Of a stretch of DNA of 64,000 nucleotides, positions 22,909 to 61,782 are shown piece after piece. The stretch is taken from assembly GCA_026683435.1 (NCBI GenBank), contig GCA_026683435.1_4866.1; one strand, 5' to 3'. Below the pieces are notes generated by a model. It made no database searches. It had not been told where the DNA came from and worked only from the letters and a program-made list of their open reading frames with translations. The position numbers and the translations under genes are program-made. How positions within the stretch are numbered: the first letter of the stretch is position 1; each line of letters opens with the position of its first letter. This stretch comes from a phage.

Positions 22909-22967
22909 TTTAAGTGCTCCTTAATACATGACATAAGCTCTGATTGAAACGTAAATTTCAGAGGTTC

Positions 22968-22992: not shown

Positions 22993-23031
22993 AAATAAAG
23001 GTTAGGTGGTACCTCGTAGAGGTACCACCTA
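22991..23031 (-). terminator. hairpin terminator after gene 23037..25196
   Basis: aggtggtacctc-gta-gaggtaccacct (12-bp stem) followed on minus strand by a T-rich run. Confidence 0.7.
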
Positions 23032-23036
23032 GACAC

Positions 23037-25196
23037 TTACTGATATATTTTGATTTGTGGGTAACTATAGCTATAGCTATCGCTATCAACATCCTGACCG
23101 ACAAACAAAATGCCTGTGTTAGAAAACGCCGCGCTGCAATACAATGTTAGCCCGGCGGGGTTAGAAATCGTATTACCGTAGTAGGCGCTGTAGCGCATGT
23201 ACTTACCGTCATTCTTCACAAACAGGCTGCCTAACGATCCAACCATTCCGAAGATCAAACAAGCACCATCGGGAGAAACACAGACATTGCCGTTCGGATA
23301 TCGAGTGGATGTTACACTATAATCAATTTCCGTGTAATCCAACTCACGTGTCGCCACCCAACCATCGGCGCGTTTTTCGAAGATGTTGTATTTGTGGGTT
23401 TCAAGGACGGATACCAGTATGACTGAAAAGTTCGAAGATGCTGCCACCTTCAACGTCGAGGCTTCTGCTAACCCTGGGATGTCTAGCTTAGCGGTTTCAA
23501 CATAGAGTCCTTCTGAACCTTTAGTTACGATATGAACAGATTTTCCATTGTGCTCTGAAAAAGCAACGCTGGTGCCATCGGCGGTCATCGCAATACTGTC
23601 GTACGAACCACACAGAGCACCAGAATCGTCGAAGTCAAACGTGAGCGTTTCGTAATTTGAAAACCCATCACTTTTTTGGTAAACAGCTATTTCGCGCGTA
23701 CCATTCCCAACGAACAGTGTCTCTCCGTCCGGGGTGAGTTTGACCAACTTACCGTTTACACCGGTGGCCGGGAGATTGGTAATTGCTGTTGGCGTCACTT
23801 TGCCCCACGGCATGTCGGCACTGTTGTCGTAAACCAGCACTGCGCCCTTCGTTGTTTCCCCAGTTATCGCGGAAGGAATCCCGACGACGAACAAATCGCC
23901 TGACTTGTTTATCGATACCGGACAACGCCCATCGGTTTCCGCATTTTCACCAGTATCAAAAGTTAGATCCATCAGAATGCTGGCATCGTGTCTATAGCCT
24001 GGGAAATCTTTTCTATATATAGAAATTGTAGTTGAACGCTTTGCAAGTGGAGTGGTAATCAGTACATTTGCATCGCTACTACAATCCAATTCTGCACCCA
24101 ACGAATAATTATTTTCCGAAGACACGTTCAACGACTGGAATTCATTCGATGGGTATACGTTTCGGCTTATCTTTATCCGATAAGGATCGGACCACTGTCC
24201 GACGGTGTCCTCACCACGATATCTGACGCGTAGCCAATAACTACTACCGTATTGAAGCACGTTATCCGGCAGAGTTATCGTTGTAAGGTTTCGCATATCG
24301 AACAATGAAGAGAATGGTAGGTTGCTACTAGGACTAAAATCTAACGTATCGCCATAGTTATAATAGAGTTTCCAATCTGTAGCAATATGCGTTTCCGTGC
24401 CTGAAGTTTCAAACGTCGATGTTTCTATCGTTAAACCTGACGGTCCGTTCACATCGGTTGGGGTTGGCGACACTATCGTCGGTTTTTGGATTGTGGTCTC
24501 TATTACCGAAAACATGGTTACTGACCAGTCACTATTAACCGTATCTGAGTGAAATTTAGCACGGGCGTAATACGTCTTGTTTCCTACCAGTGTGCCGGGT
24601 GGTAAAGTTAGAAATTTTTTAGCATCCTGAGATTCGAGCAATTGGTAAACCGTAGTGGAAAAATCTTCATTTTCAGACACTTCCCAACTCGTCGCTCTAT
24701 GAGGTGTTGTTTGAAACGGCCTTGCAGTGAAGCCATTGAGGATAAAATCCAGATCACTAGCTGAACTAGAACCGTAGTACGGGGAAATCCATGTAGGCGC
24801 GTCCACTACATTAGAGACCACCTCAATTTCATAGGTTTTGGTGATGCCGTTAGCAGAAACGGTCAGCGTAATAATTTGTCCTAACTGCCGAGGATCTTCG
24901 ATAAACAACGTATAGTTTAAACCTCCATAATGCCTGATTATTGCTTCAGGGCACGTTACCTGATAAACCGACGGTTCTTCATTACCGGCAATGTAAAAAA
25001 ACGTTTCCCTGCCTAGAATGCATTTTTTTTCATCTCCGTCGGAAAAGATTACAGTGAATGATGACTCTGCAGAAGCATCTGACAACGGTATCTTGTATTC
25101 GATTCCATCCTTACTAAATAAAACAACCCCACCCGTTTTATCCCCAGTAAATTCAGGCAGTTCGTGTAAACGTTTCTTTTTGACTACAGTTGCCAT
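23037..25196 (-). CDS. large structural-type protein (719 aa) with beta-sandwich-like and beta-propeller-like repeats; putative fibre/adhesin
   Basis: Repeated segments ending ...W(S/E)...Y (HRATSWEVSENEDFSTTVY, SSYWLRVRYRG...WSDPYRI); C-terminal repeats TADGTSVAF / SPDGACLIF; start overlaps the upstream N-module gene. Confidence 0.55.
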   Translation of the reverse strand: MATVVKKKRLHELPEFTGDKTGGVVLFSKDGIEYKIPLSDASAESSFTVIFSDGDEKKCILGRETFFYIAGNEEPSVYQVTCPEAIIRHYGGLNYTLFIEDPRQLGQIITLTVSANGITKTYEIEVVSNVVDAPTWISPYYGSSSASDLDFILNGFTARPFQTTPHRATSWEVSENEDFSTTVYQLLESQDAKKFLTLPPGTLVGNKTYYARAKFHSDTVNSDWSVTMFSVIETTIQKPTIVSPTPTDVNGPSGLTIETSTFETSGTETHIATDWKLYYNYGDTLDFSPSSNLPFSSLFDMRNLTTITLPDNVLQYGSSYWLRVRYRGEDTVGQWSDPYRIKISRNVYPSNEFQSLNVSSENNYSLGAELDCSSDANVLITTPLAKRSTTISIYRKDFPGYRHDASILMDLTFDTGENAETDGRCPVSINKSGDLFVVGIPSAITGETTKGAVLVYDNSADMPWGKVTPTAITNLPATGVNGKLVKLTPDGETLFVGNGTREIAVYQKSDGFSNYETLTFDFDDSGALCGSYDSIAMTADGTSVAFSEHNGKSVHIVTKGSEGLYVETAKLDIPGLAEASTLKVAASSNFSVILVSVLETHKYNIFEKRADGWVATRELDYTEIDYSVTSTRYPNGNVCVSPDGACLIFGMVGSLGSLFVKNDGKYMRYSAYYGNTISNPAGLTLYCSAAFSNTGILFVGQDVDSDSYSYSYPQIKIYQ

Positions 25197-25747
25197 TATA
25201 CATCGTCTCCGTAGGTTAACACTGCATCATCACCGATGCATAAAACAGTTTCTTCATCCAGACTTGCCACAGCTTCTTTTTCATTAAACGCCGTGAATGT
25301 AAAGGTAGCCGTCCAAGCCGGTGAATCGTCACTCATCGCTGCAATCAATGGCTCGTTTGTTGGTGTAATAACCCCTGTCGAGATGTCTTCACGTGACAAG
25401 TTTAAACCGCATAACTGGTTTACAACTGTCGCTAAATCAGCATAGGTGTCGCCGGGAGCTACAGTAACCAGTATCGGTCCTTGCGGGTCGATAATCTTAT
25501 TAGCGACTAGACGGTCGTAATAGACGGTAACCTTCTTGCCGTTAGGTTTACGTGCTTTCGCAATGTACGCTTGCGAGGTACGGGCACTTTCAACACCTAA
25601 GTCGATTGGCCCTACTCCGCTTATCACAATCTCGTCAGGCGATAATGACAAGCCGTTATCGTGATTAATCAACGCCACGACAAGCGCTTTCGACGAGAGT
25701 GTTAGGTCTGGCTGATAGCGGTCTGCCATTAACGCCTCCAGAAACAA
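25196..25747 (-). CDS. stand-alone N-module protein (183 aa)
   Basis: ...KVTVYYDRLVANKII...QLCGLNLSREDIS matches both N-module blocks; followed directly (overlapping start/stop) by the 719-aa gene. Confidence 0.6.
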   Translation of the reverse strand: MFLEALMADRYQPDLTLSSKALVVALINHDNGLSLSPDEIVISGVGPIDLGVESARTSQAYIAKARKPNGKKVTVYYDRLVANKIIDPQGPILVTVAPGDTYADLATVVNQLCGLNLSREDISTGVITPTNEPLIAAMSDDSPAWTATFTFTAFNEKEAVASLDEETVLCIGDDAVLTYGDDV

Positions 25748-25784
25748 AAAAATAAGCTACCACACATATGATCGTGTGGTAGCC
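25744..25784 (-). terminator. hairpin terminator after gene 25798..26193
   Basis: gctaccacac...gtgtggtagc with T-run on minus strand. Confidence 0.6.
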
Positions 25785-25797
25785 TACTCGTACGCTG

Positions 25798-26193
25798 TTA
25801 GTGCAGTGTAGCACTGTGCACAACAGTTAACCCGCGACGTTTGATCTCATCCGCGATGGATTGCAATAGCTTATCGTAACCCACCTTTACAAATTCAGGT
25901 AAGCCACGGTCAACCATCTCCATCTCGGTGATTTCTTCACGGAAAACTTGACAACAGCCTTCTAAATAACGTTTAGCTTCTGTCACGTCATCGACATACC
26001 GCGCATAACTCAGGGCGATCGCGTAACCTTCTGCAATAAACGCATACTTCATGAAGACTTCAGGGTCGAGTTCTTCAACTGCCACGTCTAGACGTGAAGC
26101 GGTCTGACGTACAGAGTTGCGTAATGATTCAGAAAACAGTGTAGTCGTAACCATATCCTGATTAGGAACGGTTTTAGGCATAATCAATTTCAC
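25798..26193 (-). CDS. hypothetical protein (131 aa)
   Basis: ORF track; last gene of the 27537..28022 operon. Confidence 0.6.
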   Translation of the reverse strand: MKLIMPKTVPNQDMVTTTLFSESLRNSVRQTASRLDVAVEELDPEVFMKYAFIAEGYAIALSYARYVDDVTEAKRYLEGCCQVFREEITEMEMVDRGLPEFVKVGYDKLLQSIADEIKRRGLTVVHSATLH

Positions 26194-26204
26194 GAGGACT
26201 CTCC

Positions 26205-26588
26205 TTACGATAACTCGCCCATGTAAATTACTTCATAACCGAACCACTCACCGATTTCAATAAGGTAAGAAACTAGCAAGTGGCGATGACAGAATTTCCC
26301 CGGTGGGCAATAGCACATTAGTACGACCTCGCCCTGGCGGAGAATCTCTATCAACTTATCAGTGTCTTCATCAAACAACCGACTAAGTTTCTGCAGGTAG
26401 CGTTTGGTATACGCAGCTTCTGCGTCGGGGCCTTTGTCAGACTTCTTGTAGTCCATCAGAAAGTCCCAGTCGGGTGCCAAATATTTCAGCCCCGACTTAA
26501 CCGTTATATCCAGCTTTGGCAAATTCCGTTTTTCAGCTATCCGCCACTTCGCCAGTTGGAGCGTCCACAGCTTTACTTGCTTTGGCAT
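26205..26588 (-). CDS. DUF488-family protein
   Basis: C-terminal LMCYCPPGKFCHRHLL and central KYLAPDWDFL...YTKRYLQKL fit the DUF488 pattern. Confidence 0.5.
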   Translation of the reverse strand: MPKQVKLWTLQLAKWRIAEKRNLPKLDITVKSGLKYLAPDWDFLMDYKKSDKGPDAEAAYTKRYLQKLSRLFDEDTDKLIEILRQGEVVLMCYCPPGKFCHRHLLVSYLIEIGEWFGYEVIYMGELS

Positions 26589-27540
26589 TTTTCGCTATCT
26601 CTTTTTCTTTCTCCTGAAGCGCTTTAAAATGTGGCGCATACGCGCACCACTCTTCCGCGGTAAACGATGTGATACATAACCGGTTAGTATCTTCACTTAC
26701 CGTAAAGGTCGTGTGGTTTCTTTCCGGGTCCTTAAAGTTAGCAAAAGCCGGTACGCCCAAACCCATAGCAGAAATAGCACTACCGAGAGCAGAACACCAT
26801 ACCCGTCTGTAAGCATCGTTGATTTTAATCTCCCATCCCACAGACGGTGTAATACCAAGACTACGATAATTCTGCGACTTTGCCGACGGATGGGCATAAA
26901 CGATGAGCACGTTATTCTCACGGTCTATCGCGAATTCGTAGTTGTTGTTGTTACTGACCTGTACCAACCTACGAATATCTTCCGGCAACTCCTGCCACAT
27001 TTCCAGTTTCTCTTTATCCCACGCAGGTGTTAGAAGCGGTGGAACGCGACCGGCATGATCTTGGAAATACATCAATTCGCTATAGAGGTTCTTTAAGCGA
27101 GCGTACTCGTCTAATGTCCAATCTCCCAGCTCTAGACTATTCTCCAACGCATCTAGCTTATTCCAACCAACAACTGCATAGGCGTGGTGCTGTTTGCGCG
27201 TAATACCACACATCAGTTTAGCGAGACCGTTAACAACATTGCCCTGCTGAACCAGAGGCGACCAGCCGTTAGCATATCCAGCGGTAACGACAGGCTGGAA
27301 GTTCTCTTCCCCGAGCACCGCCCATGTAACATGTTCGGTTTGTGCATGGTGTCTATCCATCAACCGTTCAACAATGGCCACGCTACAAAGAATTTCCATG
27401 AAGTTCGCGTTACCTCCATTCCACATGGAGAAATATGCAGGACGGACATGTCGCGCTTCATTGGCCGGTGCTTTGCACAACAGCTGATACATTATCCAGG
27501 TGGAATCCAACCCTGCTGAAAACGAAACAAGCTTTGTCAT
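26533..27540 (-). CDS. PP-loop superfamily ATP pyrophosphatase-like protein
   Basis: Track start 27609 is TTG; ATG at 27540 forms an ATGA overlap with the upstream stop. N-terminus MTKLVSFSAGLDSTW resembles the SGGxDS PP-loop. Confidence 0.4.
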   Translation of the reverse strand: MTKLVSFSAGLDSTWIMYQLLCKAPANEARHVRPAYFSMWNGGNANFMEILCSVAIVERLMDRHHAQTEHVTWAVLGEENFQPVVTAGYANGWSPLVQQGNVVNGLAKLMCGITRKQHHAYAVVGWNKLDALENSLELGDWTLDEYARLKNLYSELMYFQDHAGRVPPLLTPAWDKEKLEMWQELPEDIRRLVQVSNNNNYEFAIDRENNVLIVYAHPSAKSQNYRSLGITPSVGWEIKINDAYRRVWCSALGSAISAMGLGVPAFANFKDPERNHTTFTVSEDTNRLCITSFTAEEWCAYAPHFKALQEKEKEIAKNAKASKAVDAPTGEVADS

Positions 27541-28022
27541 TGTTTCACCGTATGTAGAAATTGATAACGTGGGGTTTCTTCTGCCACAACATCGAAAGAT
27601 GGGATGCAAACAATCTTCCCATATCCATCGAGTTCTATACGTGGAGAAATCGTGATGGTGCCTGCACGCATCACTTCAATCGCTAACGCTTTGAGTGGGC
27701 CGTGTGGTGTGAATTCACCGCGGAGTTGAAAGTAACCATCGACAACGCCATAGCAGACGTTCGATACATAACCGCAAACGCGTACGAGTTCAATACAACG
27801 TATCCGATCAATGGCGGCCTTTACTTCCCCGAACGATTGACACGGTTTAATCACAGGCGCGTCGAATTCACAGAAAACGTGTCCGCGACGTAATGCTAAC
27901 GATATCGTTTCGTCGGGACGGGCCGAGTCTTTAAATTCGTCGCACGGTATAGACAGTATCAGTCCACTCGCGGATGCCACGGTTTGTGCGGGTATTTCCT
28001 TAACCTCGGTTTGTAGTTTCAT
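27537..28022 (-). CDS. Cys-rich hypothetical protein (161 aa)
   Basis: ORF track; translationally coupled to the PP-loop gene. Confidence 0.55.
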   Translation of the reverse strand: MKLQTEVKEIPAQTVASASGLILSIPCDEFKDSARPDETISLALRRGHVFCEFDAPVIKPCQSFGEVKAAIDRIRCIELVRVCGYVSNVCYGVVDGYFQLRGEFTPHGPLKALAIEVMRAGTITISPRIELDGYGKIVCIPSFDVVAEETPRYQFLHTVKQ

Positions 28023-28112
28023 TTATTCACTCGATAATTAATGGGGTTAAAATCAAATCCATGTAACCTAGGGTTAATAGCGCCACTATCTCAATCGGCG
28101 TGAGGTTTTCCA

Positions 28113-28322
28113 TTATTTTTCCTCTTTCAATATCTCAGCAACCGCTTTGCGACACGCGTTCACAGCGTCAGGATAAGTGCTATTGTTCGGGTCTACTCGA
28201 TCAATACACATTCTGAACGTGCTGGTTGCGGTCTCTCGACGTTCTGCAGTGCGGGTACTGGTACTGACGGCGATATAAATACAGAACAACACAGCAGCTG
28301 CGATCGGCCAACGTAGATTCAT
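28113..28322 (-). CDS. small membrane protein (69 aa, one N-terminal TM helix)
   Basis: WPIAAAVLFCIYIAVS hydrophobic segment followed by a charged tail. Confidence 0.45.
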   Translation of the reverse strand: MNLRWPIAAAVLFCIYIAVSTSTRTAERRETATSTFRMCIDRVDPNNSTYPDAVNACRKAVAEILKEEK

Positions 28323-29020
28323 CAGTAATCCCCTGTTGCCCCTATCGCAGTCGCTACTTTACCGACGACCTCGTCAACCGGAAGTACCACCTCGTCTTTC
28401 TTGCTCACAATCTCTGGTACTTCTTTGACATGTTCAACGGTCACGTCAAACTTCCGAGTATAACCAACAAGTAACTTTGCCATATCTGCACGACTAACGA
28501 ACTGTTGTTCTTCCGACAGATGTAACGACGTATCAAGTAGTCCAGAATGCATGAAGTTTTCAATGAGTTGGTCTTCTTCCTCTTTGAAGTCGTACCGCTC
28601 GTTCGGGGCGGCCACAAATGCATAACCGAAATACTTCCCCTCTTCCTGTTCAGGGCGTAACGATTTAACTAACTCCTCAGCGTGTTCACAGAAGTCCGCC
28701 AAAGTATAATCGTCAAGTGTGGCAACTGCGGTTTCTGTTACAATTTCACCGGTGTCGAGTTCAGTGAGGTGCATCACCCAAAGATGCCATGGTCGCGGTT
28801 GGTCGAACAGCCCACCGACTAACATATCTGTGGCGATAGCACGAATGCGAGGACTTGCCGTAAAGTGAAAACCACGGCCCGCGTACGGCCCGAGGCGACG
28901 AATCGAACTGCCGATAAACGTGATACGATTCAGAGCGTTTTCAGCGACGGTGTGTGCCGTACGTTCTGTGGCAACTTTCGGGTTATACTTTTTGTTACGG
29001 GGTTTCTTTTGCTTAGCCAT
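28322..29020 (-). CDS. hypothetical protein with basic N-terminus (232 aa)
   Basis: Track ORF extends to 29149; ATG at 29020 (MAKQKKPRNKKYNPK...) avoids overlap with the upstream gene. Confidence 0.55.
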   Translation of the reverse strand: MAKQKKPRNKKYNPKVATERTAHTVAENALNRITFIGSSIRRLGPYAGRGFHFTASPRIRAIATDMLVGGLFDQPRPWHLWVMHLTELDTGEIVTETAVATLDDYTLADFCEHAEELVKSLRPEQEEGKYFGYAFVAAPNERYDFKEEEDQLIENFMHSGLLDTSLHLSEEQQFVSRADMAKLLVGYTRKFDVTVEHVKEVPEIVSKKDEVVLPVDEVVGKVATAIGATGDY

Positions 29021-29063
29021 GTTCTGATTCTCTTTGTGGGTTACATTAAATGTGGCGGTGATG

Positions 29064-29621
29064 TTAAAAATAGTCTTTCTTATTTTCGCTACGCGGGAAC
29101 TCAGCGAAGGGGACGGTTCCGTTTTCATCGAGCTTTGCAACCAGCTCACTGAATTTCATGAACGGTACAAAACGGTTATTGCCGGGGAACACCGAACAGA
29201 TTTTCTCAATGCGCTCAATCGTCCAGTTCCCGTTTTCAGGATCAAGGTCAGGGTTTAATGCGAGGTGCTCAATAAAGGTCGACAGCAGCGACGATTCTCT
29301 ATCTTCGGGAATCACCACTACGCGATGATGACTGTGGGTTGAAACCAAACGATAGTTCGGCCCCGCTAACTTGACGTCTAAGATTTCACCCCCTGCTCGA
29401 ATCAACGTACCGGCGTAAGTGATTTCTTCATGACGCAGGTTATCCTTACCCGTGTTCAGTACGTCCGTTAACATCCGTACGTTTTCCGTTGGGAACCACC
29501 AACCGTGTATGGTGAAGTGTTCTTCTGGGTTACTGGGCATGGGTAGGTTTAAGCCAACGTGGTTCGTGTTGACGTAAATCTGGTCGTCGATAATAACGCC
29601 TGAGATATAAACGTTATTCAT
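29064..29621 (-). CDS. hypothetical protein (185 aa)
   Basis: ORF track; ATGA-type overlap with upstream gene. Confidence 0.6.
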   Translation of the reverse strand: MNNVYISGVIIDDQIYVNTNHVGLNLPMPSNPEEHFTIHGWWFPTENVRMLTDVLNTGKDNLRHEEITYAGTLIRAGGEILDVKLAGPNYRLVSTHSHHRVVVIPEDRESSLLSTFIEHLALNPDLDPENGNWTIERIEKICSVFPGNNRFVPFMKFSELVAKLDENGTVPFAEFPRSENKKDYF

Positions 29622-30142
29622 TTACGCAAATCCTCTCTGTAAACCACGTCGCATTTACGACTGGTCATGGGGTCAATGTACGATACCAACTGAACGATGT
29701 TCTTCGGCTCCATCCCGCAAGCCCAACCACAGATTGCTAAATCCCCTCCGCTACCAAACCCAATAGGTGCACGCAAGTCCAGCTCATCAACCATCAGTAT
29801 TTTGTTGGGTTCTGGCATGTTGGTGTTCGGGTCTTCCAACGACATCATGGAGTTATGCAATTTAAAGGATTTGGTGCGGGTCATTATCAGCAACGTATCG
29901 AATGCAATGAACTGGTTGATAAATGCTTCCGCTGCTTCGCGTGCTTTACGCTTGCCAAATACGAAAGCGTAGACCGCCTTGTCGAGTTTTACACGTTGTT
30001 CGGTAGTTGGGTGGCTGGAACCAAAGAAATACGCTATACGGCCTTTTAAGACCTGTATTTTCGTATCATCAACAACCATTCCATTCAGCAACACTGCGCG
30101 GTCACCAACGAGGTAGTCTTGAGTGAATAATACCGTGGTCAC
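29618..30142 (-). CDS. HslV/proteasome-beta-like Ntn-hydrolase (tentative)
   Basis: GTG start with AAGGAGG SD; N-terminus M-TTVLFTQDYLVGDRAV (compare HslV TTIVSVRRNGHVVIAGDG) and PIGFGSGGDLAI (compare HslV IAIGSGG). Confidence 0.4.
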   Translation of the reverse strand: MTTVLFTQDYLVGDRAVLLNGMVVDDTKIQVLKGRIAYFFGSSHPTTEQRVKLDKAVYAFVFGKRKAREAAEAFINQFIAFDTLLIMTRTKSFKLHNSMMSLEDPNTNMPEPNKILMVDELDLRAPIGFGSGGDLAICGWACGMEPKNIVQLVSYIDPMTSRKCDVVYREDLRK

Positions 30143-30152
30143 GCGACCTCCT

Positions 30153-30194
30153 TAAAAAAGAAAAAAGACGTCCTACTCCCGAAGGAGTAGGACA
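30153..30194 (-). terminator. hairpin terminator after gene 30200..30544
   Basis: gtcctactcc-cgaa-ggagtaggac preceded (plus) by aaaaaagaaaaaag. Confidence 0.7.
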
Positions 30195-30199
30195 CCGAA

Positions 30200-30544
30200 T
30201 TAGAAGTGCTTACGGAAGATAGACTCGTTGCAGGTCTCCCCACGCGTCTTACCACGAGACACGGTGGTTTTGTTTGCAGCAGTTTTACCATCACCCACAG
30301 CGGTCTTCGCCAGCGGCAGACGTTCGCTTGCACCACGGAATGCGTAGTAGCGAATGTTTTCTGGGGCAGCGACATCGCCTTCGAACTGGAAGGTGATACC
30401 TTTACGCAGTGACTTGTAGGTGTAGCCTTTCAAGTCCAGCGTCTGCGGCAGTGCATTTTCATCGGCACCATGTTGGTAGTGGATAACCGTACCTACACGT
30501 TTGATGACGATATACATCTGCGCTGCTTTTGGTGCTTTGGCCAT
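30200..30544 (-). CDS. small, apparently highly expressed protein (114 aa), N-terminus MAKAPK
   Basis: ATG at 30544 with AAGGAG SD; strongly biased codon choice (ctg, cgt, ggt, aaa); own promoter-like element and terminator. Confidence 0.65.
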   Translation of the reverse strand: MAKAPKAAQMYIVIKRVGTVIHYQHGADENALPQTLDLKGYTYKSLRKGITFQFEGDVAAPENIRYYAFRGASERLPLAKTAVGDGKTAANKTTVSRGKTRGETCNESIFRKHF

Positions 30545-30592
30545 TCTCGATACTCCTTATAGATTAAAATGTGAGGGAGAAAACAATCTTCT

Positions 30593-30618
30593 CCCCTAGA
30601 TAACATCTATCTGAAAAG
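30593..30618 (-). promoter_or_regulatory. promoter/operator-like element, copy 3
   Basis: Plus cccctagataacatctatctgaaaag; leader stem gggagaa...ttctccc. Confidence 0.5.
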
Positions 30619-30625
30619 TAATGCG

Positions 30626-30952
30626 TTAGAGGCGGATTTGCAGCTGGATAGGATCGCTGTTTTCTCTGTGGGTATCAGGCCAGCAGAAAATACGATGATG
30701 TACGCGACTTATCTCAACCACTAACCCGATAGCGGGTACAAACAGGAACACGTTCAGCGGCATGGTGAAGTCAATCTTACTTTCAAGATTGGTGAAGTGG
30801 ACTTCTTTGTTATCCACCCCAATCACCTGTGCGTACACCTGCCGTGCTTCCGGCGGACACCCTAACGACTTCTGAAACGCAGACTGCATCCGAATGAGTA
30901 GCTCACTCGGCGACAGTTCATCGCGGACATCAATGAGGGATGGGCTCGACAT
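30626..30952 (-). CDS. hypothetical protein (108 aa)
   Basis: ORF track. Confidence 0.55.
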   Translation of the reverse strand: MSSPSLIDVRDELSPSELLIRMQSAFQKSLGCPPEARQVYAQVIGVDNKEVHFTNLESKIDFTMPLNVFLFVPAIGLVVEISRVHHRIFCWPDTHRENSDPIQLQIRL

Positions 30953-31244
30953 GGTGGTTGGTATCCAGTACGAAGGAGTTCTCGCCGGTCTTTTTCGCCA
31001 GCGCCCACATCCACTTGTCGGTGGACTTGTCGTGCCACGATGCTAACCACACGCCATCGACAATGCCTGCGGTGTCAACTTCCGGGTGGAACAGCATGTA
31101 TTCGTTTTCTTCCGCATCGAGGACAACGAACTGCCCTTCCTCCATACGGTCGAAGTTAGCGACACCAACGGTAATCGGTTCCGCATCGACAGAAAGGGTC
31201 ACTTCACGTTTTGGCAGGTCACGATGAATAGCACTTAACCACAT
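30930..31244 (-). CDS. hypothetical protein (104 aa)
   Basis: ORF track. Confidence 0.55.
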   Translation of the reverse strand: MWLSAIHRDLPKREVTLSVDAEPITVGVANFDRMEEGQFVVLDAEENEYMLFHPEVDTAGIVDGVWLASWHDKSTDKWMWALAKKTGENSFVLDTNHHVEPIPH

Positions 31245-31340
31245 TCTCTTAATTCCTCTTTACGTGGGTTGTTTCACATAAGTTAGTGGACTGATGTAAA
31301 TAAAAAGGGACCCCCTCACCCGTGGGCAAGGAGGCAAACC

Positions 31341-31835
31341 TTACAGTTGGTTTTCTTCGCGGTCGTCTGTCAGGACGGCTGCGCAGATAAAGCGCGCGAG
31401 TTTCAATTTCGCAGCCGCTGTCTCCTCTGCAGACGGATTCGGGTCAACCGGCGCAGCCAAATCAACATCTGCCAGCTCTTCCGCGTATTTCTCAGCAGCT
31501 TCATCGAAGCCTGCACGGATACCTGCCAGAAGGTCTTGTACTTCATCGCTTGGCACAGGACCATCGATAAGAATCTTCTGAGCATCTGATGGCTCTACAT
31601 CGGCAAAGTTCATTTCGTTCAACATGCCAATGCGTTCTGCGTTAGAGGTGATGAGTTGTGCCAACAGTTTTTCAAAACGGTTGATATACTCATCGTCCAA
31701 CGGTTGACCGGTCAGTAGCTCGTAGTAGCGGGCCATTAGTGTGTTCGCGTCGGCCCCTTCCTCATGACGCACGCCTAAATCAAAATCGTGCTGAGGGAGC
31801 TGACCTAATTCGATCATATCCATAGTTAACCTCAA
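31341..31835 (-). CDS. acidic hypothetical protein (164 aa)
   Basis: ORF track; D/E-rich. Confidence 0.6.
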   Translation of the reverse strand: MRLTMDMIELGQLPQHDFDLGVRHEEGADANTLMARYYELLTGQPLDDEYINRFEKLLAQLITSNAERIGMLNEMNFADVEPSDAQKILIDGPVPSDEVQDLLAGIRAGFDEAAEKYAEELADVDLAAPVDPNPSAEETAAAKLKLARFICAAVLTDDREENQL

Positions 31836-37973: not shown

Positions 37974-38009
37974 AAGAAAAAAAATAATAGGCACTCCGAA
38001 GAGTGCCTA
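37974..38009 (-). terminator. hairpin terminator after gene 38016..38780
   Basis: aggcactc-cgaa-gagtgcct preceded (plus) by an A-run. Confidence 0.7.
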
Positions 38010-38015
38010 GCTTAC

Positions 38016-38780
38016 TTAGAAGTCAACTCGCGTTTTCGATTTTTCCTCAATGCCTTCTGGCCATGAATCAATCCACGCTTGCAGCACCGCAGCTACACGG
38101 GGCTCAGCTAAGAACCTCTTCAATAACGGCCATGACTGGAGAGGATATAAAAACTTCAACGAAACTTGACCTGGGTCAAACTCATTCCGAACAGTAAACG
38201 GTAAACGGAAATCATAAGTTACCTGAACAACTGGCTCACTGAAAGGCTGGCCAAAGAAACTCAGGTTCCGAGTTACCGAAAGGACATGCCCTGCAAACTC
38301 ACCCCGAATCAGTTCGCTGCTCTTAACGGAGACAAACGAATAACCGTCGGTGTTCGGCTTACGCAGTCGTTCGGTTTTCATCACGTTAGCGAAGAAGTTA
38401 TCAATCACTTCTTCGACCAATACGTAATTCAGACACTCCCCACGCAACGCCTCGAGATTGTGTTGAGACCATGCATCCCATAGCGCCGGTTTTCTGGCAA
38501 TCAGCTTAAAGAACAGACGTGCAGAAACCGCCCGGAGTTCGCCGAGCATTTTCTTGGTCAGTTCAGTTTGATCCCAACTGGGGGCACAAAAGATTGTCCT
38601 TCCGCCGGAACCTACTAAGGTGGCACCGGTCACGCTGTTAATCAGTTTGTGACTTAACATGTGCGGAATACCTTTTGCCGTCAGGTCATTTTCGTCATAC
38701 GTGAATACGTAGCGATACTGACCATCTGCGGTAGGTACGGAAAGCCATTCTTTGGTTGCTGCTTTATTGAGTTTTGACAT
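38016..38780 (-). CDS. hypothetical protein (254 aa)
   Basis: ORF track; own promoter-like element (copy 5) and terminator. Confidence 0.6.
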   Translation of the reverse strand: MSKLNKAATKEWLSVPTADGQYRYVFTYDENDLTAKGIPHMLSHKLINSVTGATLVGSGGRTIFCAPSWDQTELTKKMLGELRAVSARLFFKLIARKPALWDAWSQHNLEALRGECLNYVLVEEVIDNFFANVMKTERLRKPNTDGYSFVSVKSSELIRGEFAGHVLSVTRNLSFFGQPFSEPVVQVTYDFRLPFTVRNEFDPGQVSLKFLYPLQSWPLLKRFLAEPRVAAVLQAWIDSWPEGIEEKSKTRVDF

Positions 38781-38876
38781 TTTGTTTACTCGCTTTTAAG
38801 TTTAAGTTGGTGAGTTTTAACCGACTCACAACGGCTTCTAGCATATGCTAAGGATGAAACGTAATTTTTGCACGTC

Positions 38877-40477: not shown

Positions 40478-40954
40478 TTAAAGCTCCTTTACCATATCCT
40501 GGTATTCAGTTCGAAAACCGAAACGTTCATAAAACGCAATAGCACGGTCATTATTACCGAGCACGTTAAGCTGCATCCATGCGCAGCCTTTTGATTTGCC
40601 GTAATTTTCTACGGCTTCAATTAACTCATGACCGACGCCTTGAGAGCGAACTGATTCATCTACAAAAAAGTTATATACCCAGAGGAAACGTTGTCCCTTT
40701 TTGGTGTAGCCGAAGGTGATGAAACCAACAGCCACACCACGGTCATCAACGGCGCAAGCGCACAGCGTACCTTCACCCCAAACCTCCTCCAGTTTTGAGA
40801 TTTGATTAAACCCTTCACGACCGTTTAAGTCGGCGAGTTTTATTTTCTGATCGTCGTATAACTTGTTGTGTAGTCCTAACAAGTCGGCGTAGTATTTCTT
40901 TCCATACGGGGAGTTGGGCTTGGTGACAAAAACGATTTTCATCACACCCTCCAA
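40478..40954 (-). CDS. GNAT-family N-acetyltransferase (tandem paralog 1)
   Basis: Motif A RSQGVGHELIEAVENYGKSKGCAWMQLNVLGNNDRAIAFYERFGF; N-terminus MKIVFVTKPNSPYGKKY parallels the neighbouring paralog. Confidence 0.75.
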   Translation of the reverse strand: MEGVMKIVFVTKPNSPYGKKYYADLLGLHNKLYDDQKIKLADLNGREGFNQISKLEEVWGEGTLCACAVDDRGVAVGFITFGYTKKGQRFLWVYNFFVDESVRSQGVGHELIEAVENYGKSKGCAWMQLNVLGNNDRAIAFYERFGFRTEYQDMVKEL

Positions 40955-41436
40955 TACATCTGGTAAGCACCTACCTTAAAGCCAGCTTTGTCGTAGAGCG
41001 ACTTCGCGGCAGCGTTACCGGCGTTCACGGACAGGTGAACAACTGTACACCCTTTTTCCGTTGCGGATTTCTTTACCGCATCCATCAACGCGGTGCCGTA
41101 ACCTTTACCACGTGCGCTGCTGCTAACGACCAGTGAGGATACCGACATCATCGTCACACCCTCTTCAGTCATCGTGCGGTATTGCGCAAAGCCATACAAG
41201 ACACCGTCGTCCACGACCGCCAGTAAACGACCCCGGAAGCGCTCGGCTAACGATTTAGCCGGCGTAAAACGGACATTAATACCCGTCTCTTTTCGATAGC
41301 TTTCTATTTCGCTTTTGTCCAGCTCGTTATAAAGCGCGAGGATATCTGTGGAATATTTCCTGCCGTTAGCCGTGTCTGGCCCCACTATGGTAATAATCTT
41401 CATCAGTTCACCTCGGCCAGCGATTGCTTCGTCCAC
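40942..41436 (-). CDS. GNAT-family N-acetyltransferase (tandem paralog 2)
   Basis: SARGKGYGTALMDAVKKSATEKGCTVVHLSVNAGNAAAKSLYDKAGF; N-terminus MKIITIVGPDTANGRKY. Confidence 0.75.
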   Translation of the reverse strand: MDEAIAGRGELMKIITIVGPDTANGRKYSTDILALYNELDKSEIESYRKETGINVRFTPAKSLAERFRGRLLAVVDDGVLYGFAQYRTMTEEGVTMMSVSSLVVSSSARGKGYGTALMDAVKKSATEKGCTVVHLSVNAGNAAAKSLYDKAGFKVGAYQMYWRV

Positions 41437-56354: not shown

Positions 56355-58133
56355 TTAGCGGCCGATTTTAGCAATGTCTTCTTCGGTCGGTCTGATGTAC
56401 GGGTCCAGTTTAGGATTCCGCATCATTACCAAACTTGGGTTGGTCTTCATGTACGGGTTGAGGATGTTTGCCTTAAACGGTGCCGACTTAGGAATATAGT
56501 AGACGTTACCGCATTCCAGATGCGACGCAGATGCGTGCTTAGTACGGTCGTTCAAGTTAACGGTCTTGCCTCCTTTCTTCGAACGCTTAGCATCGGTTTC
56601 GGTTTGACCGATGGCGTGCGTAGACACTGCCAATACCATTGATTCTGTAGAGGCATTGAAGAAACTGATACCGCCGTTGCTCGTAATGGTGCGCATCACC
56701 AGATTGAGCACGATCTGTTTGTTCAGTGCGTCTCGAATAGACTTCGCCGCTGTCTCTGGAGTCCGATGTTCCAGCTGCCCCAGTTTCCAACGTATTTTCG
56801 AGATCGTTGTGGTAAAGCCGCGTTGACCCAACAGTAAATAATCGGTTACCGTGAGACGTTTTCCGTACATAGACGGAATATCATCTTGTTTGGTAAGACG
56901 AGTACGCACCATCAGCTGCGTGGTGTACCAGAGGAAATCAAACATATCCAAATCATCAGGGATGGACGGATCGTTTGCCATCAGCTCACCACGGAAGGTG
57001 CTGTTGACATAGCGTTCGCATTCCTGGAAGTGGCTGTCCATACTGCGACTCAGTTCGATATCCGAGGGCTTCAGTCCGCGAATACTACGACCCAACACTT
57101 CGCGCCAGGAGGCTGCAGAGTTGAGGTTCGCAATATCTTCGTCCATTGCCATTTCGTTAATCTGTGTAAACAGCCCCGGCAGTGTTGGTGCACGACCGTT
57201 CTTACTGTTCTGTTTACCTGCGTAGTAGTGCGCTGCTTTGAAGAACGCAGCAGTCGCTACCAGCAACAGATGTTCATTCTGATCCCAACGCCCTGCATCG
57301 GTGTTAGGCATATCTTCACGTTTAACCAACAGTACGTACTGGATGGTCTTCGCGAGTTGTGGCTCACCGGACTGAATCACCACATACTTCGTTAAGTCCA
57401 CATCACGTACTTTAATCGCTGGCCAAATCGCCACATCAACACCCGCATAACGCTTCACAGCTTGTTTAAAGCCGTAGCGCCCGAAGAGCCAATACATCAA
57501 CGGCTTCTCATCGGTGTCGTGTCCAATCTGTCCGGTTGAGACAAACAGATTCGATGTACCTGGCAAGAACAGCTGCTCAGGGCGACCATTCACCAGAATC
57601 TTCGTTGGTTTCTTACAGAACTTGATAGACACCTTGCGGGTGAAGTCAAAGTTAATAAAGATACCACCGTGCTCACGACAAATACCAGGTTGGTGGATTA
57701 CAGGTGCTACGTGGTACGTTGTACCGTAGTAGTTCATTAAGCCGCCACGACGAATAAACGGCAGGCTCATTGGTCGTTGCACCGGGCGAGGATCGCCTGG
57801 AACTCGGAACGAGGCCATTACCATATACGTGTCAGTGGATGAGATGTTAATAATTGACCGGCCACGATTGTTTCGTGAATTGTTATCCGACTTCGATAAC
57901 TTAAAGATAAAAGCTTCAAACGGGGACATCTGACGGCAGCCTAACACCGTTAACCCTTCTGGTAATTTCGGGTTATCGATTTCATCATACGTCAACTCAC
58001 GACGTAGAATGGTTGCCACACGATCATGTATCCCGTCTTTAGCTTGTGTGTACCCAACTCCTTCTGCAATTGCACGATTAAAAGGCACTATTTCGCCTGC
58101 CTCTTTAATCTTCCTAATCGCATCTTTAAACAC
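56355..58133 (-). CDS. large hypothetical protein (592 aa)
   Basis: ORF track; no recognisable motif. Confidence 0.7.
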   Translation of the reverse strand: MFKDAIRKIKEAGEIVPFNRAIAEGVGYTQAKDGIHDRVATILRRELTYDEIDNPKLPEGLTVLGCRQMSPFEAFIFKLSKSDNNSRNNRGRSIINISSTDTYMVMASFRVPGDPRPVQRPMSLPFIRRGGLMNYYGTTYHVAPVIHQPGICREHGGIFINFDFTRKVSIKFCKKPTKILVNGRPEQLFLPGTSNLFVSTGQIGHDTDEKPLMYWLFGRYGFKQAVKRYAGVDVAIWPAIKVRDVDLTKYVVIQSGEPQLAKTIQYVLLVKREDMPNTDAGRWDQNEHLLLVATAAFFKAAHYYAGKQNSKNGRAPTLPGLFTQINEMAMDEDIANLNSAASWREVLGRSIRGLKPSDIELSRSMDSHFQECERYVNSTFRGELMANDPSIPDDLDMFDFLWYTTQLMVRTRLTKQDDIPSMYGKRLTVTDYLLLGQRGFTTTISKIRWKLGQLEHRTPETAAKSIRDALNKQIVLNLVMRTITSNGGISFFNASTESMVLAVSTHAIGQTETDAKRSKKGGKTVNLNDRTKHASASHLECGNVYYIPKSAPFKANILNPYMKTNPSLVMMRNPKLDPYIRPTEEDIAKIGR

Positions 58134-58144
58134 ACCGGCCTCCC

Positions 58145-59149
58145 TCAGAGAATCATCCCAACGAGTGCTACCCCTGCAGCCAAATACGCGGGAATGGATT
58201 TCAAGAACTCCGAGCTATCTTTTCGCTGATAAGCTCGGGACTCGTATTGGTCTTTACGAACATCGGAACGCAACTTAAGCTCATTCGTCTGGATTGTGTT
58301 AAGGGTGTTAATCCTCTCCTTCTCTAGCGCCAGATTATTAAGTTGTGTACGATAATCGAGGTCTTGCCGATTCTTTTTCTCATCGAGATCTTGCAACTTG
58401 GCCTGATACGTGGCTTCCAGCTTCGCACGAACATCTCGCAACTCTGGAATGTTATCGAGCCACCGATAACGCCTCGCTTCATCTTCAGATGCAAACGCCC
58501 GGAACGGGGACATCGGGTCATCGAAAGAGTACATTATCATCTTACCCCCTTCGACGCACTCCGCACCACCGATTACCATGTAAATACCCTCGTCGTAATA
58601 CTTCGATCGAATCGGTTCGACTTCCAACATCGTTGTATAGAACCTCAGCCACTTTAAAGGTGCTGGGTCTTCGTACTTCTGTACAACTACCACGCCCAAG
58701 GCAAATTCTTTACGATCCCCTCCTGGCTTACCAATGACCTCAGAATCGAGTTTTACTGGTTGGGTAGAGAAAGCCATTCCTAGCTTCTTCAACACCACCA
58801 AGTCGCCTCGCATTAACGCACCGATATCATCAACTACATACATCAGCGTTGTTTCGCCGTTCGTAGTTAATTCCTTACATATCTGCGCATACTGCTTTGG
58901 CGAATGTGCGTCGCGCAAACCAGATAGGTTAGCACCGTTCGCAAACACCGTATAGGTCACGTAAATAACAATCCCAAATTCCGCCGCTGTGGTGGACGAC
59001 GGGGCTAAAACAAAATGCCCGCCACTGAGTTCAGTGACGTATATGGGAAACCCGGTATTATTTTCGTACGTGATAGTCTTCGACACGGCACCACGGTGCA
59101 TGGGCCGCTGGGTTAGCGTTGGCTGAACGTCTAAATCATAACGGTTCAT
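58145..59149 (-). CDS. coiled-coil protein with C-terminal transmembrane anchor (334 aa)
   Basis: Track start 59173 is TTG; ATG at 59149 (MNRYDL...); C-terminal IPAYLAAGVALVGMIL. Confidence 0.65.
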   Translation of the reverse strand: MNRYDLDVQPTLTQRPMHRGAVSKTITYENNTGFPIYVTELSGGHFVLAPSSTTAAEFGIVIYVTYTVFANGANLSGLRDAHSPKQYAQICKELTTNGETTLMYVVDDIGALMRGDLVVLKKLGMAFSTQPVKLDSEVIGKPGGDRKEFALGVVVVQKYEDPAPLKWLRFYTTMLEVEPIRSKYYDEGIYMVIGGAECVEGGKMIMYSFDDPMSPFRAFASEDEARRYRWLDNIPELRDVRAKLEATYQAKLQDLDEKKNRQDLDYRTQLNNLALEKERINTLNTIQTNELKLRSDVRKDQYESRAYQRKDSSEFLKSIPAYLAAGVALVGMIL

Positions 59150-59183
59150 TGAACATCCCAGTAATAATACCAAAAGAATTATT

Positions 59184-59209
59184 CACGTAGATAATATCTA
59201 TCTCAGATT
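59184..59209 (-). promoter_or_regulatory. promoter/operator-like element, copy 6
   Basis: Plus cacgtagataatatctatctcagatt, about 40 nt upstream of ATG 59149. Confidence 0.5.
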
Positions 59210-59262
59210 ACTTTGGGCACGGGTTCATACCCAGTGCCCTTAACGTAAAAAACTTTAGGGTA

Positions 59263-59346
59263 TCAAACGTGGTGACCGTTCGCCATAGAACCGCGCCCAT
59301 CAAACATCGGTGCAACTAGTCTTGATCTCTCTAAATTGACTTCCAT
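59263..59346 (-). CDS. possible 27-codon small ORF between two promoter-like elements
   Basis: ATG at 59346 with AAGGAG SD; MEVNLERSRLVAPMFDGRGSMANGHHV. Confidence 0.3.
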   Translation of the reverse strand: MEVNLERSRLVAPMFDGRGSMANGHHV

Positions 59347-59380
59347 TACTGTCTCCTTAAGTTAAAACCGAATGACTCTC

Positions 59381-59406
59381 TCCCTAAGATAATATCTATC
59401 TATAAA
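59381..59406 (-). promoter_or_regulatory. promoter/operator-like element, copy 7
   Basis: Plus tccctaagataatatctatctataaa, just downstream (minus sense) of the terminator. Confidence 0.5.
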
Positions 59407-59410
59407 TTTT

Positions 59411-59451
59411 TAGAAAAAAAGAAAAAGCTTACTCCCCGAAGGGAGTAAGCT
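59411..59451 (-). terminator. hairpin terminator after gene 59482..61782
   Basis: gcttactccc-cgaa-gggagtaagc preceded (plus) by aaaaaaagaaaaa. Confidence 0.75.
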
Positions 59452-59481
59452 AATCTTAGGCAACGTAATCCTTACGGATTA

Positions 59482-61782
59482 TTAGCCGCCAGCGCCTTCA
59501 CCGCCAGTACCTGGCTGGGTAGCGCCGCCGCCAACATCACCCGCATTACCGCCATTAGTACCGCCAGTACCGTTGGAAGTAGTAGTGACGTTGAACGCCA
59601 GTTTCTCTTCCACGAACTTGGTGATACCTTTAATCCAGATCAGACCAGTGATCGGGCAGTGGCAGATGTGTGCGTTACGAGGCTGTACTGCCAGCTCTTT
59701 GCTGGTAGCGCCGTTACGCTGGATGTTGATGTTGGTTACCATGATCGGAGACCAGAAGTGGTTACCCCAGTTCAGAACACAGTAAGAACCATCATCAGCG
59801 GTTGGAACTTTCAGAACCCACTGCAGGCGGCGAGTCCAGCTGCCGTCAGCTTCGTTCTTCACACGCCAGCGGTCATCGTTGGTGGTGATAACTTCGTACT
59901 CGTAGCGATCGCCCAGCAGACGCTGGTCACCCTGAACCAGCAGCAGCATTGCAGCAGTCGGTTCGTCAGTTGCGATAACAACTTTCGGCAGTGCGTTCGG
60001 ATCCGCGGTCAGCAGGCGCAGAGCCGGCATGAAACGAGAATCCTGGATAGCACGAGTTACCTGGTCGCCGATACGCTGTACCAGACCCTGACGGGCGTTG
60101 ATGAGCGCATCTTTGGTATCCAGAGACTGGATCACTTTGTCCACTTCGTAGTCGCTTTCGCTGTACCACGGAGCAACCCAGTGACGGCCCAGGCCGCGGA
60201 TAGCAGGTTTGTCCCACGGAGTGATCATGGACGCAGCTGCGTTCTTAACCGCTTCGGTGTAAGACAGAGTCTGAGTGATAGCCAGCATTTCGTTACGGAT
60301 GTTAACCGCAGAAACGAGGTCGTCCAGACGTTCGGTGTCGTCGTATTCAACGCCAACCGGAGATTTGGTCATGATCGGAGAACCGTACTGCAGTTTGTAG
60401 TTCTCTTGTTCCCAAATCGGGTCGAGCAGAAGACCCTGGGTTCTCCGGTTCTCGTTGGTACGAGTACCGTCGAAGCGCCAGCCCAGCAGCTCCAGTTTCA
60501 GGTTGTCGATGATCACTTTACCGGTGCCGCTTTCGATATCAACAGCAGTACCAGTTGCGTCGTACAGACCTTCGATTTCCAGAGACGGTGCAGTCACGTC
60601 AACACGACCAGAGAACTGACCGTTGGTGAACAGAGACATGCTGATGTTCATGGAATAACGAATGGTGTAATCGTTCTGTGCCAGAGCGGCCAGTGCCGGG
60701 ATTTCAGCACCTTTCCAGTCCAGAGACTTGGCGTTCAGGGAGAACACAGTGCGACGGAACTGCAGGACCAGCTCACGGCCATCACCTTCAGGAGGACGCT
60801 GGAAGGTAGCGAACTGCATGTCGCGTACGTTCAGTTTGATCAGCGCACCATCTTTCGCTTCTTCAGTCGGCTTACGCACAGACAGCAGCAGGCTACCCAG
60901 CGCTGCACCCGGTGCGATTTCGTCGGTTTCATCGTAACCTTCCTGCACGATACCTGGATGGGCAGACAGCTGGAACAGATTCAGACGACGTTCAGAGAAG
61001 CTCAGGTAGTTGGTCGGATACGCCGGCACACGACCCAGCTGAACGTTTTCGTTTTCGATGATGTCTTCGGATACGAAGAACTTCGCGTTCTCACCGGTTT
61101 CCATCACGTAAGGTACGATACGGATAGCATCGTCCTGCAGGACTTTGTGGTTAGACAGCGCGTTATGCAGCGGCTGACGGTTGTCTTCAACCACGTCTTT
61201 GGTCAGCAGGGCGTTCAGGATACCACGAGTTACAGTAGTAACTTTGGTACGAACGGTGATGCCGACGTCGTTGGTGTCCACAGTGATGGTCGGGAACAGG
61301 GTTTCTGCAAACTTGGATTGAGTTTCCAGAGCACGCACGTTCAGCGTCCAGGTCAGACCCAGGTTTTTGTCCAGGTCTTTGTTGGTGTAGTATTCGGTTG
61401 CGACCAGCGGAGTTTTACCGTAGTCAGCAGCCAGAGATGCTGCACCAGAAATAGCGATCGGCATGTAGCTGGCATATTCCGGCTTCGCGCTCTCAGCAGC
61501 AACACGGGTCATGAAGTCGTCTTCGTGACCGGCAGCAGCCAGAATCATCGCAGAAGCAACCTGAGCAGCGTGGCTCATGGTTTTGCCAGGGTTTACAGCT
61601 TCGTAGTGCTGCTGAGCAGTGTCACGCAGGTTGGTGAAGCCGGCAGCATTTTTACGTACAGATTCGCCAACGGCTACGGTTTGCCATACGTCATTAGCGG
61701 AAGAGCCTGCCTTGGCAGCAGCGACCAGAGCATTGCCCTGCTGAACCAGCTGGTCCAGACTAGCGATACGGGTATCTTTCAT
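59482..61782 (-). CDS. abundant structural protein, 766 aa; candidate major capsid protein of a large phage (speculative)
   Basis: Strongly optimised codon usage (ctg, cgt, ggt, acc, gaa); Gly-rich C-terminal tail; strong terminator; a capsid protein of this size would suggest a jumbo phage. Confidence 0.7.
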   Translation of the reverse strand: MKDTRIASLDQLVQQGNALVAAAKAGSSANDVWQTVAVGESVRKNAAGFTNLRDTAQQHYEAVNPGKTMSHAAQVASAMILAAAGHEDDFMTRVAAESAKPEYASYMPIAISGAASLAADYGKTPLVATEYYTNKDLDKNLGLTWTLNVRALETQSKFAETLFPTITVDTNDVGITVRTKVTTVTRGILNALLTKDVVEDNRQPLHNALSNHKVLQDDAIRIVPYVMETGENAKFFVSEDIIENENVQLGRVPAYPTNYLSFSERRLNLFQLSAHPGIVQEGYDETDEIAPGAALGSLLLSVRKPTEEAKDGALIKLNVRDMQFATFQRPPEGDGRELVLQFRRTVFSLNAKSLDWKGAEIPALAALAQNDYTIRYSMNISMSLFTNGQFSGRVDVTAPSLEIEGLYDATGTAVDIESGTGKVIIDNLKLELLGWRFDGTRTNENRRTQGLLLDPIWEQENYKLQYGSPIMTKSPVGVEYDDTERLDDLVSAVNIRNEMLAITQTLSYTEAVKNAAASMITPWDKPAIRGLGRHWVAPWYSESDYEVDKVIQSLDTKDALINARQGLVQRIGDQVTRAIQDSRFMPALRLLTADPNALPKVVIATDEPTAAMLLLVQGDQRLLGDRYEYEVITTNDDRWRVKNEADGSWTRRLQWVLKVPTADDGSYCVLNWGNHFWSPIMVTNINIQRNGATSKELAVQPRNAHICHCPITGLIWIKGITKFVEEKLAFNVTTTSNGTGGTNGGNAGDVGGGATQPGTGGEGAGG

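Follow-up and report, generated by a model that had tools for sequence, protein, structure and literature searches.

A 27-codon open reading frame behind the capsid gene of a Seoulvirus phage is very probably the stub of a deleted PHROG 15414 gene

The interval between the capsid gene and the gp76 homolog

The window analyzed here, by which we mean the whole stretch of 64,000 nucleotides, originates, by sequence comparison, from an SPN3US-like jumbo phage of the genus Seoulvirus. Around the 27-codon open reading frame (ORF) considered in this work, BLAST identity to Salmonella phage SPN3US and Escherichia phage vB_EcoM_EC001 (EC001) is 99.4-99.6%, with positions 59100-59500 being 100% identical to SPN3US and the 59-63 kb stretch as a whole differing from it by only ~0.5%. 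That the window is SPN3US itself is ruled out by the comparison with 67.9-112 kb of the SPN3US genome, where blocks at 92-97% identity are separated by several segments that have no counterpart. BLAST found no match in the corresponding SPN3US region for window positions 23000-25159, 29020-31075, 38008-38799 and 40944-41395, and for positions 21000-31500 no record in the phage collection had a coverage above 60%. Taken together, the unmatched segments, the 92-97% identity of the remainder and the best coverage of 60% argue that the window phage is a mosaic Seoulvirus with several replaced gene cassettes, and one that is absent from the phage collection.

All genes near the ORF lie on the minus strand. 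The upstream neighbor in the ORF list is the major capsid protein (MCP) gene (59482-61782, minus strand), a homolog of SPN3US gp75; its homologs bear the label "major head protein" in the SPN3US and EC001 records, and the Pfam family PhiKZ_MCP matches the homologous gene of a Logan assembly contig (L016). The terminator scan placed a canonical intrinsic terminator directly after the capsid gene (59410-59451, minus strand), consisting of an 11-bp stem and a TTCG loop followed by TTTTTCTTTTTTT, the part at 59451-59426 being succeeded by a T tract, with a fold of -21.4 kcal/mol (z = -4.81), and the alignment shows it to be kept in all Seoulvirus relatives. Downstream of the ORF lies the homolog of SPN3US gp76 (58145-59149, minus strand; 334 aa, PHROG 7286, unknown function), which is followed by the gene for a 592-aa protein of PHROG 2943, a family described there as polymerase (56355-58133, minus strand). 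The interval between the MCP gene and the gp76 homolog carries no annotation in the SPN3US or EC001 records. An Rfam search at a permissive threshold returned just two sub-threshold chance hits, both away from the ORF, on the MCP terminator and gene end, and a tRNA search of the region returned none.

The sequence-only reading of this interval had described a 27-codon ORF with an AAGGAG Shine-Dalgarno (SD) sequence, situated between the sixth and seventh copies of a repeated element and followed by a hairpin of the form gggcac...gtgccc. Its strand was left unstated, and the hairpin falls outside the coordinates it gave (59263-59346). Each of these features is present. The ORF runs on the minus strand from 59346 to 59263 (ATG 59346-59344, TGA 59265-59263) and encodes the peptide MEVNLERSRLVAPMFDGRGSMANGHHV; the AAGGAG (59353-59358, minus strand) is separated from the ATG by the 6-nt spacer ACAGTA; a position weight matrix (PWM) scan identifies the flanking elements as the sixth and seventh copies in plus-strand coordinates; and the hairpin occupies 59239-59215. 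At the SD, the string AAGGAGACAGTAATG is invariant in all seven aligned Seoulvirus genomes. Sites on the minus strand of the window that combine AAGGAG with a start codon head ORFs of at least 88 aa in 15 of 16 cases, the 27-codon ORF being the sole short one.

The repeated element is a 14-nt promoter-like motif, GATAGATATTATCT, with one copy on either side of the ORF and its core GATAGATATTATC at 59400-59388 and 59202-59190 (minus strand). The upstream copy, TATAGATAGATATTATCTTAGGGAG, occupies 59380-59404 and the downstream copy, CTGAGATAGATATTATCTACGTGAA, occupies 59182-59206 (both minus strand); the latter is the putative promoter of the gp76 homolog and is kept at that position in Seoulvirus and Machinavirus. 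A 15-nt version of the motif matches the window five times against 0.08 matches expected, and the PWM scan recovers seven copies, every one of them on the minus strand (core starts 59400, 59202, 38896, 37195, 30611, 22985 and 18441). In five copies, nnGkGA comes after the core GATAGATRTTATCT, and the other two are the variants TTCAGATATATATTACTTAGGTGAGAG. All seven are intergenic and on the coding strand, mostly directly after a terminator hairpin, with 40-77 nt between the motif and the gene start and about 230 nt in one case. The genes that they head are small and non-structural, and include an HTH protein; the PWM scan found no copy upstream of the capsid gene. A second box, AAATTACGTTTCA, is present at 38855-38867 and, with one mismatch, at 22945-22957 (both minus strand), in both cases inside a 5' leader and 17-20 nt beyond a copy of the motif; 0.2 matches were expected.

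On the minus strand of the region, no pair of -35 and -10 elements at 16-18 nt spacing qualified as a sigma-70 promoter; the lone minus-strand hit (9/12, CTGAGA-17-AATAAT) overlaps the downstream motif copy, and the number of hits was not above that in shuffled sequences. A search of the accessible literature returned nothing relevant on this motif, or on promoter or transcriptome mapping in SPN3US-like phages. Early promoters of jumbo phages are recognized as a highly conserved AT-rich motif about 10 nt upstream of the 5' ends of early transcripts. In jumbo phages that encode their own RNA polymerases, the early promoters used by the virion RNA polymerase (RNAP) are short, AT-rich, nearly invariant and detectable bioinformatically, and the late promoters are not predictable (PMC7598289). 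On the basis of its form and distribution, the motif is most likely a promoter for a multisubunit RNAP of the phage itself and probably belongs to the early (virion RNAP) class. We therefore regard it as a likely, still putative, phage-RNAP promoter class of Seoulvirus and Machinavirus, with the assignment to early transcription being the more provisional part.

The hairpin downstream of the ORF, 23 nt past its stop codon, is the center of a larger intercistronic stem-loop (59208-59248, minus strand), which is preceded by TTTTTTACG. It combines an outer UUAC/GUAA pairing with an inner GGGCAC.GGGU-AUGA-ACCC GUGCCC structure, in which the arm GGGCAC (59239-59234) pairs with GTGCCC (59220-59215) around a GGGU/ACCC helix. 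The minimum free energy is -18.8 kcal/mol (z = -3.35 against shuffled sequences). The terminator scan did not flag this structure, which is followed by AAAGUAAUCUGA and no T tract, and no alternative, antiterminator-like pairing was evident on folding.

A full-length gene in the same position in related phages

In most Seoulvirus genomes and in the Erwinia Machinavirus phages, the slot between the MCP gene and the gp76 homolog is filled by a gene for a 232-aa protein of PHROG 15414, a family of unknown function. The matching interval in most other Seoulvirus genomes is ~600 nt longer than in the window and contains an annotated CDS of 699 nt; the records with the full-length gene form the large majority for the genus, comprising 16 clean genomes and about a dozen error-ridden SPFM assemblies. 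In SPFM19, the 232-aa CDS (SPFM19_00174 / VFR14698.1) starts with MVINLEKSRLVAPMFDGRGFMAAGFF. The terminator, motif, leader and AAGGAGACAGTAATG upstream of this CDS are the same as in the window, and so is the succession TAA-AGTTTTTTACG-hairpin-motif downstream of it. An alignment of seven genomes likewise shows flanks that are near-invariant and a gene body that is absent from the window, SPN3US and Escherichia phage vB_EcoM_Lh1B (Lh1B).

The arrangement that emerges is a conserved cassette made up of the capsid terminator, GATAGATATTATCT, the leader, the SD, the gene, its stop codon, a T-rich stretch, the stem-loop, GATAGATATTATC(T/C) and the gp76 homolog. In SPFM19, Proteus phage 7, the Logan contig L016, Caitlin, ChrisDB, Huxley and SNUABM_10, the motif heads the full-length gene at the same distance as it heads the ORF here. 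In the Erwinia Machinavirus phages, the motif is found at both of the positions homologous to those that flank the ORF. Within the main Seoulvirus group the full-length proteins share 69-100% amino acid identity, falling to 58% for Proteus phage 7, and the same-slot gene of Erwinia phages Caitlin, ChrisDB, Huxley and pEa_SNUABM_4/10/29 is 23-47% identical at the amino acid level. In SPAsTU, pEa_SNUABM_29, pEa_SNUABM_4 and a Logan contig, an extra gene of ~235 aa is located directly upstream of the 232-aa gene (L008 183-890, L012 1-369, L013 1-387 and L017 1-590 in the sequences compared), so that in cassettes with this insertion the 232-aa gene comes directly after it. The SPAsTU copy, the one that was aligned, is a distant paralog with 19% identity and a shared C-terminal G-Y-x-L-x-L-x-x-G-x-G. 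A post-capsid slot that holds zero, one or two paralogous genes is typical of a dispensable accessory locus.

The full-length protein had no match in Pfam, and in PHROGs it matched only families of unknown function. An exhaustive HMMER search of 1.8 billion representatives returned 13 proteins, all of them similar in length. Its AF2 model (pLDDT 77.5, pTM 0.76) predicts an alpha/beta fold with nothing significant among PDB structures (best E = 0.048, TM about 0.12); in BFVD the matches were uncharacterized proteins only, the named ones belonging to Erwinia phages (Huxley and Wellington). Neither the Pfam and PHROGs searches nor the fold search gave any feature of an endonuclease or transposase.

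The 27-codon ORF corresponds to the very beginning of this gene. In hmmscan, residues 1-24 of the peptide align with positions 1-24 of the 234 positions of the PHROG 15414 profile (E = 2.6e-5), and BLASTP shows 20 of 25 residues to be identical to residues 1-25 of P0002, the protein of the closest full-length allele, which is encoded on the Logan contig L016 together with the capsid gene. The ORF also agrees with PHROG 15414 in its position, occupying the slot between the MCP gene and the gp76 homolog with the motif and SD upstream and the stem-loop downstream. The family's full-length domain of ~230 aa is not present, as the in-frame remainder is just 24-25 of 232 codons. Residues 2-26 amount to a single beta-hairpin inside the larger predicted fold, and from the model it seems unlikely that they would retain the activity of the full protein on their own.

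The stem-loop can also be followed through the relatives, where the hairpin sits 15 nt past the full-length stop codon. The stem-loop occupies the same position in nine relatives and does so with three unrelated stem sequences, and this conservation of position and structure without conservation of sequence marks it as a genuine 3' element of the gene that was lost. At the homologous positions of L002, L008, L009 and L011-L015, the stem-loop always follows (T)5-6AC(G/A) and never precedes a T tract. A non-canonical terminator is one possible role for it, and an element for RNA 3' ends or processing is another. Because it has no U tract, a stabilizing or processing structure, or a weak terminator, is more likely than an efficient terminator.

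Two deletions and their junctions

The point at which the window departs from the full-length gene lies at 59270-59275 (minus strand), as judged from the alignment and from comparison with L016 and Lh1B, with an ambiguity of about 5 nt. The sequence immediately past this junction, ACGTTTGATACCCTAA (59255-59270, minus strand), reads ...R L I P stop in the original frame and ends on the native TAA (59257-59255); its 16 nt equal the end of the P0002 gene in L016, which closes with ...GCCCAACGTTTGATACCCTAA (...CAA CGT TTG ATA CCC TAA). From the ATG to the native TAA there are 92 nt in the window versus 699 nt in full-length alleles, and hence ~607 nt (3n+1) are gone. What has been removed is codons ~26-227, and what has been kept is codons 1-24/25 together with the last 16-20 nt including the TAA. 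Since 607 is 3n+1, the 5' frame runs past the junction into CAC GTT TGA and ends as "HV*". The ORF is thus composed of 24-25 ancestral codons, with its final 2-3 codons and its TGA out of frame. Microhomology at the junction amounts to at most 1-3 nt. The presence of the full-length gene, within the same cassette and in the same slot, in two genera argues that the long form is ancestral and that the window carries a deletion.

SPN3US, EC001, Lh1B, the window phage and one ENA metagenome contig share this junction, and its occurrence in all five points to a natural allele and not an assembly artifact. It might still be supposed that the deletion arose in the assembly or the laboratory history of a single reference genome, with the real phages carrying the full gene. 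The record of Lh1B lends this some color, as it has exactly the length of EC001 and contains many N, which is suggestive of reference-guided assembly. Against it stand the recurrence of the junction in SPN3US, EC001, the window and the metagenome contig, and the fact that the window phage is 3-7% removed from SPN3US and has had several segments replaced elsewhere. An artifact of this kind has, in our judgment, next to no chance of being the explanation.

A second, different deletion affects the same gene in phage JN03 and Salmonella phage SaP7. Here 548 nt (3n+2) are missing from an allele like that of Proteus phage 7, with the 5' breakpoint at about codon 43. The resulting stub has 65 codons, and its frameshifted tail, unrelated to that in the window, passes through the hairpin and stops at a TGA on the border of the motif that follows. 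In the SaP7 record, the stub is annotated as a 65-aa "hypothetical protein" (ULF48333.1; L005 909-1106), a frameshifted deletion product of the same gene whose last ~20 residues come from the 3' UTR and the stem-loop. By these sequence comparisons, the JN03/SaP7 deletion is independent of the SPN3US-type deletion.

These junctions also bear on the opposite polarity of events, in which an ancestral short form, an intergenic micro-ORF, later received the 232-aa gene by insertion, for example as a mobile or acquired gene. The variability of the slot, with its zero, one or two paralogous genes, would fit such a history. Several observations stand against it. A same-slot gene is present in two genera, with amino acid identities of 23-100% that track the relatedness of the phages; the gene has none of the features of a mobile element that were looked for; and two lineages have two different breakpoints. 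Most directly, the stub holds 5' 72-75 nt and 3' 16-20 nt of the gene, the latter with the native stop codon, and these two parts are mutually out of frame. It is this retained 3' end that effectively refutes an insertion, as far as can be judged from the sequences, and we consider such a history to have a negligible probability.

Variation in the stub, its origin and its relation to known systems

The sequence of the stub is identical in SPN3US, the window phage and the metagenome contig. As a sign of function this identity is ruled out, because the entire surrounding 59-63 kb is ~99.5% identical to SPN3US. The two remaining carriers differ from the window. EC001 has S20F, and Lh1B has E2V, V3I, S20F, H25P and H26N together with a change of the stop codon from TGA to TAA. 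Over 801 nt, the window and Lh1B differ at 13 positions, seven of them in the 84-nt stub and six among the ~698 determined positions outside it (Fisher p = 1.3e-4). Of the six stub differences in sense codons, five are non-synonymous, the seventh difference being the swap of the stop codon. The Lh1B record (OK428535.1, L006) has 240200 nt, the exact length of EC001, and scattered N, 19 of them in the 801 nt compared, which suggests that it is a reference-guided consensus whose variants should be treated with caution. The argument from clustering is weakened by these many N and by the possibly low quality of the record. With that reservation, the pattern points tentatively to a stub under no constraint, a reading that draws on four known carriers, of which Lh1B is of doubtful quality.

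The sequence-only reading had suggested that the ORF could encode a leader peptide or a small regulatory protein. In its fullest form, this proposal would have translation of the ORF and the hairpin together controlling the gp76 homolog and the polymerase-like gene. Several features of the locus make it attractive: the SD is perfect and ideally spaced, a stable hairpin follows 23 nt after the stop codon, the ORF sits between two promoter-like motifs, and its sequence is shared without change by SPN3US, the window and the metagenome contig. Set against these are the origin of the first 24-25 codons as the beginning of a 232-codon gene and of the tail as the product of a frameshift. The hairpin is not specific to the stub and is general to the relatives, where it follows the full-length stop codon; it is accompanied by neither a T tract nor an evident alternative pairing. 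Furthermore, JN03 and SaP7 carry an unrelated 65-codon stub in the same place, the non-synonymous changes in EC001 and Lh1B extend to the tail and the stop codon, and the local identity to SPN3US is uninformative. A functional leader or regulator is therefore very improbable, and neither version of the proposal is borne out.

Conservation of the reading frame in relatives had been suggested as a way of deciding the matter. The frame is indeed kept, but as the start of a far longer gene, and such a comparison would consequently mislead. A tandem promoter had also been considered, and this describes the present arrangement correctly without describing a design, for in the relatives the two motif copies lie ~800 nt apart and each serves its own gene; their proximity in the window is a by-product of the deletion.

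We conclude that the 27-codon ORF is, with high probability, a pseudogene stub of the 232-codon PHROG 15414 gene left by an internal deletion, a reading that draws on comparison between genomes and that none of the observations contradicts. Phage genomes commonly contain gene stubs produced by internal deletion, and the present stub is a case of ordinary gene decay and not a functional member of PHROG 15414. In the model that we propose, an ancestor carried a 699-nt PHROG 15414 gene between the MCP gene and the gp76 homolog. Some 607 nt, with codons ~26-227, would then have been lost through an illegitimate deletion inside the gene, leaving behind the promoter-like motif, the 5' leader, the SD, the ATG, the first 24-25 codons, the 3' end and the stem-loop. 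As the orphaned promoter, leader, SD and ATG are intact, and AAGGAG is a near-perfect marker of gene starts, transcription and translation of the stub probably continue, yielding a 27-aa peptide without a selected function, although some secondary use of the peptide or of the orphaned promoter is conceivable. Transcripts from the orphaned promoter might end or be stabilized at the stem-loop, or might continue into the gp76 homolog and the polymerase-like gene. The locus would in this way have become an accidental tandem promoter, in which 198 nt rather than about 800 nt separate the motif copies. Since the gene has been lost twice, and the promoter, SD, start codon and 3' stem-loop were kept each time, it is conceivable that the two independent losses were selected, either because the protein is a liability in some Salmonella or E. 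coli hosts, for example by triggering a defense system that the deletion would evade, or because a second promoter boosts the gp76 homolog and the polymerase-like gene. We regard selection of this kind as unlikely.

The case is instructive in that a strong SD and a short ORF between promoter-like repeats mimic a regulatory micro-gene, and it is the sister genomes that reveal a deletion scar. SPN3US, EC001 and the window phage lack the gene found right after the capsid gene in most of the genus, so growth on laboratory hosts does not require it. With SPN3US being the genetic model of the group, the locus offers a natural comparison between gene-plus and gene-minus phages, and it also provides a site where an insertion is tolerated and where a promoter and an SD are already in place. 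The ORF itself is of somewhat narrower interest than the motif GATAGATATTATCT and the 3' stem-loop, both of which are conserved across two genera.

Among known systems, the trpL and hisL attenuators likewise present a short ORF before a hairpin and downstream genes. The stub locus differs from them in having no U tract, no antiterminator pairing and no run of regulatory codons. Its peptide is not kept as a short ORF, as the relatives have either the 232-codon gene or the different, 65-codon stub, and its hairpin is an ordinary 3' element in those relatives.

The motif resembles the early virion-RNAP promoters of phiKZ-like phages (PMC7598289), which have the same short, AT-rich and near-invariant form and are located upstream of non-structural operons. 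Like them, it occurs after terminators and on the coding strand, and is missing before the capsid gene, although its sequence is unlike those described for phiKZ and AR9.

The JN03/SaP7 stub is a parallel case, being also a truncated remnant in the same slot that has kept the promoter, SD, start codon, 3' end and hairpin and that ends out of frame. It differs from the stub in the window in its parental allele, its 5' breakpoint, the length of its deletion and its tail.

The nearest relatives of the stub are the PHROG 15414 proteins themselves, such as those of SPFM19, SEGD1, Proteus phage 7 (QNN97499.1) and Caitlin (gp83). The stub lacks about 607 nt (~200 codons) of their genes and cannot form their predicted alpha/beta fold. 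It nevertheless shares with them the slot, the motif, the leader, the SD, which it inherits from the full-length gene, and the start codon, as well as 24-25 homologous N-terminal residues (L.(K/R)S.L.APMFDG.G), the last 16-20 nt and the 3' stem-loop.
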